Program-made: the position numbers and the translations under genes
From: Candidatus Omnitrophota bacterium
GTDB lineage: Bacteria; Omnitrophota; Gorgyraeia; 2-01-FULL-45-10
Length of the DNA stretch: 24,419 nucleotides
Assembly (NCBI GenBank): GCA_023818895.1
Contig: JAMWCX010000001.1
Location: 708,258-732,676, forward strand
Reading direction: 5' to 3'
The notes under the pieces: model-generated
The model's input: only the letters and a program-made list of their open reading frames with translations
Told to the model about the DNA's origin: nothing
Databases searched by the model: none
In this document: positions 6,001 through 7,025 of the stretch, piece by piece
How positions within the stretch are numbered: position 1 is the first letter of the stretch
Layout: each line of letters starts with the position of its first letter

Positions 6001-6783
6001 TGCGAGAATAACCGTACCGCCTTCGGCAAAAAGCGTTCCTGTATTTTTGACCTGGTCAAGAACCGGTCTTCCCTCATAATCGGTGACCTGTTTGGCAACC
6101 GGTTCGGATAACACCACCGAAATAAGGCCTTTTCCGTCAAATTCCAGTCTCACTCCGTTTCCTCCCGCAAGAGCAATAGTGCCAGCTCTCGCGGTTATAA
6201 CACCTTTATTCTCAACTGCTCCGGCTATGAGAACGCCGAAGCCACCATCTTGGAGTGTGATATTTCCCTCGTTCAAGAGCAAGAGATCCAGCTCCTTCTG
6301 TGTGATACGCTGGAAAAGGTGTTGACCTGCCAGAAAGTTCTGATTGGTAATATCCCTAGTCGAAAGTATTATTCCGCTTGCGGTTATGCTCGCACTCGAC
6401 GCGACATATATGCCTGACTCATTGACCAGAATAAGGATACCGTTGGACTGAAGAATACCTTGTATCTGCGTAGGATAGGGCGAGTTTACCCTATTCAATA
6501 TCTCGGATGTCGAGCTCGGAAGATTAACAATTACCTTCTCATGGGCTGCAATATCAAAAGAGCCATAATTAACTATTGTCTTATCGGATGCGTTGATGGT
6601 AAGTGTGTTTTCAGCCTGCTGGAATTCGGCAGTCCCTGAAACGACCTCGTAGTCTCTGGGTAGCCCATGAACGATATTTGCATAAAAGATATTTAAAATT
6701 AAAAGGCTAAATACGCATACTCCTGCCAGAATGCGCTTCTCGCATCGAGTACTGAGCTTTTTCGAATTCAGAATATTTCCCAT
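1..6783 (-). CDS. Giant TPS-domain exoprotein (TpsA / filamentous-haemagglutinin-like fibre), 3'-partial: 2,261 codons in window, no stop before base 1
   Basis: Absent from the supplied ORF track because it has no in-window stop. Reverse-complement translation from ATG 6783-6781 gives MGNILNSKKLSTRCEKRILAGVCVFSLLILNIFYANIVHGLPRDYEVVSGTAEFQQAENTLTINASDKTIVNYGSFDIAAHEKVIVNLPSSTSEILNRVNSPYPTQIQGILQSNGILILVNESGIYVASSASITASGIILSTRDI... I read it without a stop down to ...YKGFTGTYGPGKYDWGGATYGGQGGNNPLATYGSVTEPISLGSGGYG at base 1. The track lists no minus-strand ORF fragment in this frame, as expected if the frame never closes. An SD-like GGAAAAGGG lies 8 nt upstream of the ATG. Confidence 0.88.
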   Translation of the reverse strand, partial: MGNILNSKKLSTRCEKRILAGVCVFSLLILNIFYANIVHGLPRDYEVVSGTAEFQQAENTLTINASDKTIVNYGSFDIAAHEKVIVNLPSSTSEILNRVNSPYPTQIQGILQSNGILILVNESGIYVASSASITASGIILSTRDITNQNFLAGQHLFQRITQKELDLLLLNEGNITLQDGGFGVLIAGAVENKGVITARAGTIALAGGNGVRLEFDGKGLISVVLSEPVAKQVTDYEGRPVLDQVKNTGTLFAEGGTVILAASSINEIFRHSINLQGMVKGSRVENKNGVIKIVADGDVSIGGDVEAGEIIVEDVAPGEPIRAVSEAPATPDVNVFLNRTQEFAPAKITIEPAARIKAVDVIALVSREVIDIGVTIEAPIVVLITGGDIVTRDSAIIQAQNLTMTAHRFGALTTPVRVEAQNIHVKRLNGIIDIRESLGIGSTVVIRGPPDEGQFGSIEYNRSCQQLTLEGASVTISGEIPLNLYGNITFYNFICTVPGKTIYFESGKSYTFLGITEIHGAIGLANTIMLKSSIEGSAWYVYMDSSSYSLEWVGIQDSHNIGENTIYAKPKCDFGGNTGWAKNETYYISSWYDLNNMRYDLYGDYYLEADLSSSTSGYAGIGDNWAPVGATTGSPFAGTFNGQNHTISNLRVNGGEYSDCFGLFCVVSPIDDSVTISNVGLVNPIVTGGSYVGALIGKVEIAIGYSYQVNISNCYVNGGSVSGSSNVGGLIGGMEQGGSGAITISQCYSTASVVGTGENVGGLVGSACDYGRSEGGGGASIYFNDCYATGSVSSSSYAAGGLIGFALADGALSLAHVDVVNCFATGDVVGSSDAGGLIGLCMTTNAPNDYIYIHNSYATGMANGTTTGNLLIGRIEQHYKGSNGGPVYVSNSYYISDMLPGGNESWFFDPTSAVYTGEPDPWDFTDTWDSFSGVTYPHLAYENYAPPSVGITISGYAYQAIGGSAIANGTDIVSLVVMGTAAGTASTASDGFYIFSGISMPEGSEIAILVYLNSATAYRGSAITVTDSTTSNIENLNIYAGATVTVKHEASSGLTSIDNANLSDAKGSQSAAEILYSVAGGALILGNETYPIASLHIPSQAAFAPGGNVTLSGDWTNYGVFSSGGGTQTVILNGGNQSIKGSTTFNNLTKTVTASDTLRFEALSTQTITGTLTLQGVSGNLLSLRSTSDGSKWYINPQGTTTLSYLDVKDSVNTNATLIDVRTANCVNSGNNSRWLFVTPVSYTWIGDAASNLWSVASNWYGGVVPGSSNVAAYNPNVSNENCNIDISTSISGMNINANYTGTIYLGDDSTARTLTVGTGNYTQAGGTFDGKIGTLDINGSFTQSGGTFIAPVAGYTVEVNLTFSGGTYSPSNKVTFDCRSNAPIRSSTITANGVLGGTVIINKLYDSSSVIITAGTSINLGDNPLTNICGNPIINNGTITVNSGTWTIKNNYTNWDWNGAALTNNGTITHNGSGWILTAISGGCSVNFTNNTGATITYAGDTLSLNGNLTQNGTFDLSGKTITIEGIRGSTITAQGELGGTVIINKLYDSSSVIITAGTSINLGDNPLTNICGNPIINNGTITVNSGTWTIKNNYTNWDWNGAALTNNGTITHNGSGWILTAISGGCSVNFTNNTGATITYAGDTLSLNGNLTQNGTFDLSGKTVIFNGSTQNSILTYSGGTIGSIIINKSDYGTVAFTTDVTVNGDFIRTDGVVSNPSSAIVITINGNFSMSTTDAFGGANLTLVLGGSSDKTFTQNAGTISSPIQIYKSDGAKLILQTTMVTASTVDVAEGSLDLAGKTISAGGAFTIQDGARLRLLGSETVTTPNCQTNSTVEYYGTGDYTAYGLKAGSYYYNLEFTGSGGRWKMATTIDGDWTIAEGATVTMSDNVIVSGDIYLGGTLNDGGYTINLAGNWYQSGLGALNATGLVNFNGTDQAIYGSTTFHDIEKMTGGVTLTFEKGSTQVITGEMKLQGFAATPEGRLKLRSSEDDEDGAIDDRWYIDPQGSRAIQYLDVKDSECINATPIIASGTGSLNSGNNVDWIFGYTFYWNAQPGYTDLYWWNENNWVGGDPTHTRPDEFDNVIFDASYSNYNSTIDNTWLNTIGFGKIASLTIKANYTGLITQGSSIAVRGDMEITGDFIIEDHAASTTVYTFKQDQLGDLIVGGNILVGANSIISVTRSANQYNVAPYGAGRTIAVGGDVYISNSAAINASYKGFTGTYGPGKYDWGGATYGGQGGNNPLATYGSVTEPISLGSGGYG
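649..960 (-). other. Junction domain copy B3
   Basis: STTFHDIEKMTGGVTLTFEKGSTQVITGEMKLQGFAATPEGRLKLRSSEDDEDGAIDDRWYIDPQGSRAIQYLDVKDSECINATPIIASGTGSLNSGNNVDWIF. It is followed by YTFYWNAQPGYTDLYWWNENNWVGGDPTHTRPDEFDNVIFD. Confidence 0.55.
1790..2595 (-). repeat. Perfect in-frame tandem duplication inside gene B: 1790..2166 = 2219..2595 (377 bp, period 429 bp = 143 codons)
   Basis: Base-by-base comparison of the two stretches found no mismatch. They are separated by a unique 52-bp linker (2167..2218). Each copy encodes GGTVIINKLYDSSSVIITAGTSINLGDNPLTNICGNPIINNGTITVNSGTWTIKNNYTNWDWNGAALTNNGTITHNGSGWILTAISGGCSVNFTNNTGATITYAGDTLSLNGNLTQNGTFDLSGKT. Confidence 0.95.
3073..3360 (-). other. Junction domain copy B2
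   Basis: STTFNNLTKTVTASDTLRFEALSTQTITGTLTLQGVSGNLLSLRSTSDGSKWYINPQGTTTLSYLDVKDSVNTNATLIDVRTANCVNSGNNSRWLF. It is followed by YTWIGDAASNLWSVASNWYGGVVPGSSNVAAY. Confidence 0.55.
3705..3951 (-). other. Small beta-sandwich (CarboxypepD_reg/Ig-like) following the GLUG module of gene B
   Basis: APPSVGITISGYAYQAIGGSAIANGTDIVSLVVMGTAAGTASTASDGFYIFSGISMPEGSEIAILVYLNSATAYRGSAITV. The pattern h-x-h-SG-x...G...h-x-h...T-x-x-x-G-x-F-x-F is typical of carboxypeptidase-regulatory-like sandwiches. Called by eye only. Confidence 0.4.
3952..5028 (-). other. GLUG-motif beta-helix module of gene B, closed by YPHLAYENY
   Basis: YYISSWYDLNNMRYDLYGDYYLEADLSSSTSGYAGIGDNWAPVGATTGSPFAGTFNGQNHTISNLRVNGGEYSDCFGLFCVV... 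This is followed by successive turns ending in YVGALIG, VGGLIG, VGGLVG, AGGLIG and AGGLIG, and finishes with PWDFTDTWDSFSGVTYPHLAYENY. It matches my memory of the Glug family (PF07581). Confidence 0.7.
5041..5322 (-). other. Junction domain copy B1 (~95 aa, unnamed recurrent domain)
   Basis: ITFYNFICTVPGKTIYFESGKSYTFLGITEIHGAIGLANTIMLKSSIEGSAWYVYMDSSSYSLEWVGIQDSHNIGENTIYAKPKCDFGGNTGWA. It fits the consensus F-x-N-h-x-C-x-x-PGKT-h-x-F...L-x-h-x-G...h-x-L-[RK]-S...W-x-h...V-x-V-x-DS-x-N...GNN-x-x-W shared by six copies. Confidence 0.55.
5884..6660 (-). other. TPS (two-partner secretion) / haemagglutination-activity N-terminal domain of gene B (aa ~42-300)
   Basis: LPRDYEVVSGTAEFQQAENTLTINASDKTIVNYGSFDIAAHEKVIVNLPSSTSEILNRVNSPYPTQIQGILQSNGILILVNESGIYVASSASITASGIILST...NEGNITLQDGGFGVLIAGAVENKGVITARAGTIALAGGNGVRLEF...NTGTLFAEGGTVILAA. 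This follows the Haemagg_act (PF05860) pattern: xxILNRVxGxxPSxIxGxLxxNGxvxLiNPNGI. The NPNGI box is replaced here by NESGI. Confidence 0.8.
6664..6783 (-). other. Predicted Sec signal peptide of gene B (aa 1-40)
   Basis: Basic n-region MGNILNSKKLSTRCEKR, hydrophobic core ILAGVCVFSLLILNIFYANIV, and a small-residue site VHG|LP directly before the TPS domain. The cleavage site is judged by eye only. Confidence 0.6.
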
Positions 6784-6809
6784 TGTATGAACCCTTTTCC
6801 GCAACACCC

Positions 6810-6852
6810 AAAACAAAAAACCCGCAAAGCTCATGTTGCCGAACTTGCGGGT
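6810..6852 (-). terminator. Rho-independent terminator-like hairpin plus U-tract, 26 nt upstream of the gene B ATG
   Basis: The minus-strand RNA reads ACCCGCAA-GUUCGGCAACAUGAGCU-UUGCGGGU-UUUUUGUUUU. It has a perfect 8-bp GC-rich stem (arms 6845..6852 and 6820..6827), a rather long 17-nt loop, and then U5GU4 (6819..6810). Confidence 0.6.
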
Positions 6853-6857
6853 GTATT

Positions 6858-6987
6858 GCCCACCGACGAGGTGGACAAACGAAAAATCTCTTATTTCGGC
6901 AACTGGCTATCCTGCTTTCGCGAGGACCCTTTAGCTTTGTGACCCCGGATTTCTCCGGGTGTACTATTGTCGCTTAAGAGAAAGCGA
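6858..6987 (-). promoter_or_regulatory. GC-rich structured 5' leader element of gene B (candidate riboswitch/attenuator aptamer; possibly GEMM-I-like, unverified)
   Basis: Four hairpins on the minus-strand RNA. (1) UCGCUU-UCUCUU-AAGCGA at 6970..6987. (2) CCCGGA-GAAA-UCCGGG at 6944..6959. (3) GUCCU(C)GC-GAAA-GCAGGAU at 6909..6927. (4) GUCCACC-UCGUC-GGUGGGC at 6858..6876. GCGAC (6969..6973) can pair with GUUGC (6899..6903), enclosing the two GAAA hairpins and the linker GGGUCACAAAGCUAAAGG. Confidence 0.4.
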
Positions 6988-7025
6988 TTAATTTAAATAA
7001 GAAAGATCTTTTTCCTTACGATTTG

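Follow-up and report, generated by a model that had tools for sequence, protein, structure and literature searches.

An apparent GEMM-I riboswitch, predicted to accept 3'3'-cGAMP, upstream of a giant two-partner secretion exoprotein gene of Candidatus Omnitrophota

The leader and the downstream gene

The stretch of DNA analyzed here (hereinafter, the window) comprises 24,419 nucleotides (nt) of the genome of a Candidatus Omnitrophota bacterium (contig JAMWCX010000001.1 of assembly GCA_023818895.1, positions 708,258 to 732,676) and contains two giant open reading frames (ORFs), gene A and gene B, that are separated on the minus strand, where all features described below are located, by a spacer of 498 nt, from the stop codon of gene A to the ATG of gene B at 6783. 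The leader of gene B is, almost certainly, a cyclic-dinucleotide riboswitch of the GEMM-I class. Our overall reading, namely that this riboswitch controls a giant two-partner secretion (TPS) gene by premature termination of transcription and possesses a binding pocket that accepts 3'3'-cGAMP (cyclic GMP-AMP), is one that we favor, with some reservation.

Gene B (6783-1) is an open frame of more than 2261 amino acids (aa) that runs off the start of the window. Residues 54-305 of the predicted protein comprise the TPS secretion domain PF05860 (82.8 bits with a cut-off of 33.5, E = 4.9e-23), in agreement with the preliminary description of this DNA, in which the gene had been taken for a giant TPS adhesin. 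The closest database relatives of this protein are nearly all annotated as 'filamentous hemagglutinin N-terminal domain' proteins and come from metagenome-assembled genomes (MAGs) of Candidatus Omnitrophota. No gene for a TpsB partner is present in the 24-kb window.

The putative promoter is a sigma-70-type site at 7053-7026 that consists of the -35 hexamer TTGAAA (7053-7048), a 16-nt spacer and the extended -10 element TGaTATAAT (7034-7026), with 11 of 12 matches in addition to the TG, and because of the position of this site, the transcription start site (TSS) is placed near 7019. Promoter-like sites are not enriched in the AT-rich spacer (2 found compared to 2.0 expected from shuffled sequences). 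The sequence just 3' of the promoter (GUAAGG...UCUUUAA) is kept in the leaders of the closest relatives, and conservation begins near the predicted TSS. The leader of about 236 nt has a minimum free energy (MFE) of -80.6 kcal/mol (z = -4.0), and none of 200 shuffled sequences folded as well. At its 3' end, the Shine-Dalgarno (SD)-like sequence GGAAAAGGG (6800-6792) and the ATG (6783-6781) form the start of the regulated gene. The structured leader with its predicted TSS had been recognized in the preliminary description, and all of its elements are found in their places, including the four hairpins, two of these capped by GAAA, which we identify as P1a, P1b, a spacer hairpin and the terminator, and the U-tract of the terminator that ends 26 nt before the ATG, with the SD-like stretch in between.

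The aptamer and its homologs

When the entire window was compared with all Rfam families using cmscan, the only match was to RF01051 (c-di-GMP-I, the class recognizing cyclic di-GMP), which covers 6975-6895 over the complete model (1-87 of 87) with a score of 57.5 bits (E = 5e-9 for the whole window), compared to the gathering score of 35; the covariance model R1, built in the course of this analysis, gives the same aptamer 75.9 bits. The GEMM-I-like core that had been noticed previously is thus matched by RF01051 over its full length and above the gathering score. A permissive search of the leader (E <= 1) returned no family outside the c-di-GMP-I clan, so other riboswitch classes, T-boxes and leader motifs are ruled out. 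Within the clan, the c-di-GMP-I-GGC variant (RF03167), which shares the fold and was the top clan member by E-value in the permissive search, was rejected because its score of 52.4 bits is below the gathering score of 59 and because the diagnostic base is A, not G (consensus CGCGAAG in the model versus CACAAAG in the window).

The anatomy of the aptamer (6975-6895) follows from the Rfam match, model R1 and covariation in 60 homologs. In the RF01051 alignment, P1 consists of CG/CG (6972-6971 with 6898-6897) and is probably extended by UCUCUU (6981-6976) paired with AAGAGA (6892-6887). The P1a arm (6964-6939) includes the pairs G21-C46 and U22-A45, the internal loop ACA/GUC, and a six-pair stem with a GAAA tetraloop; all six pairs of this hairpin, CCCGGA-GAAA-UCCGGG at 6959-6944, are changed on both sides across the homologs. 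It is followed by A47 (6938) and A48 (6937), within the CAAAGC segment that is kept in all homologs, and by the P1b arm (6936-6901), which is built of AGCU/AGUU, GGGUC/GAU-AG-CC and the distal hairpin UCCU-C-GC-GAAA-GC-AGGA. G91 and C92 (6900-6899, C92 at 6899) are unpaired, and the GCC segment is invariant. In the solved GEMM-I structures, A47 is intercalated between the two ligand bases (PMC5888326, PMC6140456), and C92 is engaged in Watson-Crick pairing with the ligand's G-beta base (PMC6140456). The enclosing helix GCGAC/GUUGC of the preliminary description conflicts with the covarying pairs of P1b, in which AGUU closes the arm against AGCU, and had to be rejected because GUU is part of P1b, whereas G91 and C92 are unpaired.

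The window aptamer shares with V. cholerae Vc2 and RF01051 the P1 helix, the GNRA-looped P1a, P1b, the junctions AA-N-N-G, CAAAGC and GCC, and the nucleotides A47 and C92; a surface or adhesion gene downstream is likewise typical of GEMM. It differs from them in A20, A24C, A43U, the U22-A45 pair, the lack of the 11-nt receptor, the second GAAA loop on P1b and the Omnitrophota host.

We sampled 48 loci from genomes and 80 from metagenomes, each with a gene for a relative of the gene B TPS domain. Among the first 40 loci, the Rfam model detected an aptamer ahead of the TPS gene in 14 at the gathering score. A covariance model derived from these sequences detected it in 17 of 49 sources (the 48 genome loci and the window) and in 49 of the 80 metagenome loci. 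All the aptamers found are on the coding strand, upstream of the TPS ORF, and one further locus was also positive. Altogether, the aptamer is located upstream of homologous TPS genes in 65 loci besides the window, nearly all from Candidatus Omnitrophota. Among the loci with other taxonomic titles, there was none with an aptamer save for a few MAG records titled 'uncultured Planctomycetia/Planctomycetales' (L001, L009, L012, L013, L017, L019, L029 and L034), a title that is probably a coarse or outdated label.

Across 60 distinct sequences, 98.1% of the alignment cells that should pair do so, and 12 of the 19 pairs have changed on both sides. None of 500 column shuffles reached these values, and sliding the partners by 1-3 columns left 21-42% paired. 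The alignment was fitted to the model, which somewhat favors the structure; the same pairs and compensations are apparent in an independent MAFFT alignment (A4). Such abundant compensatory changes in the homologous TPS leaders, along with the Rfam match, bear out the earlier suggestion of a GEMM-I fold. What emerges is a conserved family of GEMM-I riboswitches dedicated to TPS exoprotein genes in Omnitrophota.

Several features of individual members of this family can be mentioned here. Contig JBARQV010000027.1 carries two TPS genes, separated by about 19 kb, and a separate riboswitch is associated with each of them (L002 and L004). Insertions of approximately 30-80 nt are present in P1a or P1b of some aptamers (L021:2137-2298, L001:2070-2242, L052:1323-1484, L054:2080-2227, L059:2186-2323 and L084:2240-2366). 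The inverted repeats UCCCGAC...GUCGGGA at the termini of the 64-nt insert of L021, which is located between C44 and position 45, point to either a miniature mobile element or an additional structured domain.

Some observations weigh against the inclusion of the window leader among the functional members of the class. The window aptamer is the lowest among the full-length, insertion-free Rfam matches (57.5 compared to 56-80 bits), it carries the substitutions A24C and A43U, and despite the presence of the P1a GAAA loop, the 11-nt tetraloop receptor (CCUAAG/UAUGG) that most homologs have in P1b is deleted. The lower score is explained by the missing receptor together with the two substitutions; docking of a GNRA loop of P1a into a receptor in P1b is common in the class but not universal. 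The same features, combined with the large insertions within the aptamers of some relatives, could be taken to indicate that the aptamer is a decaying, non-functional relic and that the terminator is constitutive or part of a simple attenuator. We consider such decay very improbable: all helices are preserved, each pair being Watson-Crick or wobble, none of the invariant junction nucleotides (A17, A18, A47, A48, G91 and C92) is missing, the complementarity of the antiterminator described below is preserved at 9 of 9 positions, and the functional Gm0970 riboswitch of Geobacter likewise lacks the 11-nt receptor.

The expression platform

Downstream of the aptamer lies an intrinsic terminator (6851-6810) that consists of the stem-loop 6851-6821 and the U-tract UUUUUUGUUUU (6820-6810, U6GU4). 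The hairpin, CCCGCAAGUUC-GGCAACAU-GAGCUUUGCGGG, has 11 pairs, one bulged U and an 8-nt loop, with a folding energy of -16.2 kcal/mol. The inner part of its 5' arm and the loop include the sequence UUCGGCAAC (6843-6835), for which the aptamer segment GUUGCCGAA (6903-6895) is a perfect 9-nt complement; we designate these the 3' (switching) strand and the 5' strand of a predicted antiterminator. The 5' strand overlaps the 3' end of P1b, G91, C92 and the 3' strand of P1. A spacer hairpin predicted by folding, GUCCACC-UCGUC-GGUGGGC (6876-6858), is located between the aptamer and the terminator and would be inside the antiterminator loop. Upstream, the MFE structures of truncated transcripts include a 5' hairpin, P0 (UCGCUU-UCUCUU-AAGCGA, 6987-6970), which sequesters the 5' strand of P1. 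Inspection by eye reveals equivalents of P0 in L001, L049, L051, L052 and L053, where a single compensatory difference (CGC/GCG versus CGG/CCG) is seen; RNAalifold called no structure, P0 included, in the 5' flanks of the six closest leaders, a result that we attribute to misalignment of the hairpin by MAFFT. With this by-eye comparison and the single-sequence folds as its support, P0 may be a competitor of P1 that favors the antiterminator state.

In folds of successively longer transcripts, the aptamer hairpins are the earliest to form, and the terminator belongs to the MFE structure once its 3' arm emerges. When the transcript is cut before the 3' arm of the terminator, the MFE structure contains the 9-bp antiterminator and P0, whereas with the aptamer enforced, the terminator forms beside the aptamer. 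The terminator layout that had been pointed out for the window is conserved, with an intrinsic terminator detectable in 64 of the 66 homologous leaders. In 46 of 58 distinct homologs, the 5' arm of the terminator pairs with aptamer nucleotides at the decision point, and the aptamer segment involved varies, being the 3' strand of P1a, the receptor strand of P1b or the 3' strand of P1. L001, which at 64% protein identity ranks among the nearest relatives from the genome collection, employs the same segment as the window, and all 9 pairs are kept despite four substitutions (GUUACCGAA/UUCGGUGGC).

The case for the antiterminator consists throughout of thermodynamic predictions and has its weaker sides, which should be set against these observations. 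A simple terminator scanner made no call at 6851-6810, possibly because the one-base bulge in the stem does not suit its pattern. The energy of the duplex between the switching strand and the aptamer in the window differs from that of shuffled sequences by z = -1.56 only, and the covariation in favor of the antiterminator rests on one relative, L001. Furthermore, the terminator is part of the full-length MFE structure both with and without enforcement of the aptamer; therefore, the antiterminator must act kinetically.

By sequence criteria, the expression platform is a Rho-independent terminator with an alternative pairing of the type described in the C. difficile riboswitch Cd1, and control by transcription termination is, in our judgment, very likely. 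The polarity is less secure. Cd1, which precedes the flgB operon, is an OFF switch in which the aptamer coexists with a separate downstream terminator, and the antiterminator is formed by the 3' strand of the aptamer and the 5' strand of the terminator (PMC9262584); OFF switching by Cd1 has been established experimentally (PMC9262584). The window is predicted to share these properties, differing from Cd1 in that the latter has G20 and precedes flagellar genes and in the additional 5' hairpin that competes with P1. The window riboswitch is accordingly predicted to work in the manner of Cd1, and we hold it likely that the ligand promotes termination.

The opposite would be a GEMM-I riboswitch in which the ligand causes read-through, or one that acts mainly at the level of translation. 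The characterized cGAMP riboswitches of Geobacter are ON switches (PMC9262584), in contrast to the OFF switch predicted here, adhesion is usually promoted by c-di-GMP, and the presence of the terminator in every full-length fold leaves the polarity dependent on a kinetic argument. In the pilM riboswitch, however, aptamer and terminator overlap and hence cannot form together (PMC9262584), whereas the terminator of the window is separate, 43 nt past the aptamer, and compatible with it in the manner of Cd1. Moreover, the strand complementary to the terminator 5' arm resides in the part of the aptamer that is stabilized by the ligand, and the SD-like sequence (6800-6792) is downstream of the terminator and has no conserved pairing partner. 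An ON switch or a mainly translational one appears, then, quite unlikely.

Under the predicted OFF mechanism, transcription would begin near 7019 and, in the ligand-free state, the 5' strand of P1 would be held in the P0 hairpin (6987-6970), while GUUGCCGAA, which includes C92 and the 3' strand of P1, would pair with UUCGGCAAC as the antiterminator. This pairing would block the terminator stem, so that RNA polymerase reads into gene B. In the ligand-bound state, P1, C92 and the base of P1b would be locked within the aptamer, and the switching strand would be freed, allowing the terminator (6851-6821) and its U-tract to form; transcription would then end 26 nt before the ATG. This arrangement would be the P-A-T-H of Cd1.

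Additional elements are seen around the terminator. In L017, L020, L021, L024 and L029, two successive intrinsic terminators are found 100-200 nt past the aptamer. In the window (6892-6876), a U-tract begins immediately after the P1 extension AAGAGA (AAGAGAUUUUUU), an arrangement that is also present in L001, L049, L051, L052 and L053, with no other terminator detected by script in L051. Conceivably, P1 closed by the ligand and this U-tract might make up a weak ligand-dependent terminator, the stem itself being weak. We also considered that the leader might encode a small ORF past the aptamer (AAGAGA-U6-AUG in L001, L049, L052 and L053) but rejected this idea, as the window and L051 have no AUG there.

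The binding pocket and the identity of the ligand

In the complex of Vc2 with c-di-GMP, one guanine of the ligand is read by G20 at its Hoogsteen face, and the second is paired with C92 (PMC6140456, PMC5888326). Of the contact set G20/A47/C92, the window keeps A47 and C92, but G20 is replaced by A, a departure from the c-di-GMP-selective pocket. The RF01051 alignment places U19 at 6966 and A20 at 6965 with the top posterior probability, and position 20 is anchored by the flanking G21-C46 and U22-A45 pairs. A20 is a known natural state within the RF01051 family, and the window conforms to the sequence definition of GEMM-Ib, that is, the GEMM-I fold with adenine at position 20. The altered ligand specificity that had been suspected in the preliminary description is, for this reason, a reasonable idea; the deviations on which it had been founded (GUACACC and UCAC) turn out to be mainly a compensated change from C22-G45 to U22-A45 (GU...AC in place of GC...GC), plus changes in the internal loop, and U22-A45 occurs at this pair in 21 of 60 homologs.

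The rules of specificity that we apply are those of PMC6140456, PMC8835794 and PMC5888326. The cGAMP-binding GEMM-Ib subclass is defined by the substitution G20A, and riboswitches that have A20 naturally are either bispecific or selective for cGAMP (PMC6140456). Gm0970 is about 1600-fold selective for cGAMP (PMC8835794), and Gs1761, like Gm0970, strongly favors cGAMP. The Geobacter GEMM-Ib riboswitches (Gm0970/pilM and Gs1761) resemble the window in A20, in the short P1b without the 11-nt receptor and in the occurrence of G20- and A20-type leaders within one lineage; they differ in their targets, which are exoelectrogenesis or pilus genes rather than a TPS exoprotein. With Gm0970, the similarity extends to the identical junction CGACAAUA, U19-A20 included, and to the identical 3' segment UGCCGAAAU, as can be seen by comparing AUCGACAAUA-CU-AAACC...GGGAUGCCGAAAU in Gm0970 with AAGCGACAAUA-GU-ACACC...AGUUGCCGAAAU in the window. 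The junction of Gs1761 is presumably CGACAAUAC as well, consistent with the published numbering A11/A14/A41. Given the A20 pocket and the junction shared with Gm0970, the pocket formed by A20, A47 and C92 with U19 is predicted to accept 3'3'-cGAMP, selectively or together with c-di-GMP, and the riboswitch may sense its ligand in the manner of Gm0970.

In the 60 distinct Omnitrophota aptamers, positions 19-20 are AG in 35, UA in 15, AA in 3 and UG in 2, the rest being gapped or containing C; A20 is present in 19 of the 60. The coupling of U19 with A20 is strong (15/4 versus 2/37, Fisher p = 1.5e-8), the p-value being uncorrected for relatedness. On a rough neighbor-joining tree of the N-termini of the downstream TPS proteins, the A/G state at position 20 requires about 14 changes by Fitch parsimony over 63 tips; for instance, the UA-type window clusters with the AG-type L052 and L001, L020 (UA) with L090 and L021 (UG), and L072 and L080 (UA) with L060 and L070 (AG). 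Orthologous leaders have thus switched time and again between two discrete states of the pocket. Since UA, which takes two steps, greatly outnumbers AA, which takes one, we argue for selection on the A20 pocket over drift, and this excess raises our estimate that the UA leaders respond to cGAMP, without constituting a proof.

The principal alternative is an ordinary c-di-GMP riboswitch, in which A20 and U19 are tolerated, perhaps by way of a protonated adenine, c-di-GMP is the sole relevant ligand in vivo, and the OFF terminator operates unchanged. Aptamers with A20 bind c-di-GMP well, with dissociation at 53 nM for Vc2 G20A and 30 nM for the natural Cbe 1-2 aptamer, in the latter case about 15-fold tighter than cGAMP (PMC6140456). 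G20 is the state found in about two thirds of the orthologous leaders of Omnitrophota, flips between G20 and A20 among close relatives would be easy if both states read one signal, and the G21-C46 pair beside position 20 is of the c-di-GMP type, unlike that of Gm0970. In addition, no cGAMP synthase is documented for Omnitrophota in the literature and loci that we searched. Neutral drift from AG would, on the other hand, predict the dominance of AA, whereas UA is five times more common than AA, and UG is rare; the pocket, furthermore, equals that of a riboswitch that is about 1600-fold selective for cGAMP. We regard exclusive recognition of c-di-GMP as a serious possibility that nevertheless falls short of being probable.

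The prediction of cGAMP recognition must also be weighed against a number of further considerations. Vc2 G20A is bispecific, binding c-di-GMP at 53 nM and cGAMP at 120 nM, and Cbe 1-2, a natural A20 GEMM-I aptamer from Clostridium beijerinckii, that is, from outside Geobacter, prefers c-di-GMP 15-fold (30 nM versus 463 nM for cGAMP), its likeness to the window resting on A20 but not on position 19 (PMC6140456). The P1 stem might also influence selectivity (PMC6140456). The pairs beside A20 are G21-C46 and U22-A45 in the window, compared to C-G and U-G in Gm0970, which is the one validated cGAMP aptamer sequence compared, taken from a machine-read PDF of a preprint supplement in which two copies differ slightly. 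A 2015 study by Ren et al. is said to have found that mutations outside the binding pocket affect selectivity as well. The tree of TPS N-termini is crude, and the coupling statistic carries the caveat on relatedness given above. Finally, a scan for the Hypr Ser/Thr signature found no GGDEF motif in 580 kb of fetched loci, and for the question of a cGAMP synthase, these loci and 24 kb of the host genome are what was covered.

A20 alone, then, leaves the specificity unfixed, within a range that spans from the approximately 1600-fold cGAMP selectivity of Gm0970 to the 15-fold c-di-GMP preference of Cbe 1-2. The ligand would be 3'3'-cGAMP, c-di-GMP or both, an identity that the sequence alone does not fix. 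On balance, it seems rather probable that the leader RNA binds cGAMP with useful affinity; that it is selective for cGAMP over c-di-GMP is doubtful.

Neighboring features of the locus

Gene A, upstream of the leader, is a second giant ORF (24419-7285) of more than 5672 aa that is open at the end of the window, beyond which its 5' end and any leader of its own lie. The encoded protein has GLUG repeats and laminin-G-like domains, and it also matches M26 IgA1 metallopeptidases in their N-terminal region. About 90 nt past the stop codon of gene A, the hairpin CCGUCUC-loop-GAGACGG followed by UUUCC (7195-7150) might act as a weak terminator between gene A and the promoter of gene B. Within gene B, a DNA segment of at least 300 nt is directly repeated with 100% identity (1790-2089 and 2219-2518, with 429-nt spacing); at the protein level, this is an exact 143-aa tandem duplication, which could be very recent or an artifact of assembly.

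Implications

Omnitrophota are uncultivated, ultra-small bacteria that are putatively predatory or symbiotic, and giant ORFs, whose presumed role is attachment to the cells of hosts or prey, are a hallmark of this group. A GEMM-I riboswitch ahead of a gene for a surface protein is expected biology, in a new phylum and gene context. In two main genomic studies of Omnitrophota (PMC10066038, bioRxiv 10.1101/2023.11.21.568195), no regulation of the giant genes is described, and the literature that we searched contains no link between Omnitrophota and riboswitches. New here are the Omnitrophota host, the giant TPS target and the recurrent, coupled AG/UA polymorphism at the site of ligand contact. 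A riboswitch ahead of giant genes of the TPS type ties their expression to a second messenger, such that a high level of the messenger is predicted to cause repression.

The change from AG to UA hints at cGAMP signaling in a new phylum. A more far-reaching scenario, which we put forward tentatively and consider unlikely as it stands, is that Omnitrophota use two cyclic dinucleotides, with the giant TPS genes wired to one or the other by the switch at positions 19-20, AG for c-di-GMP and UA for 3'3'-cGAMP. If this is the case, the switch has been flipped many times, and the window gene would be a cGAMP-repressed giant adhesin; riboswitch signaling by cGAMP would extend well past Geobacter, and the first regulatory handle on the giant genes of Omnitrophota would be at hand. 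The recurrence of the AG-to-UA change offers a natural series of near-isogenic aptamers for the study of how specificity for c-di-GMP versus cGAMP evolves, and the predictions on the riboswitch are accessible with synthetic RNA, free of the need for culture.

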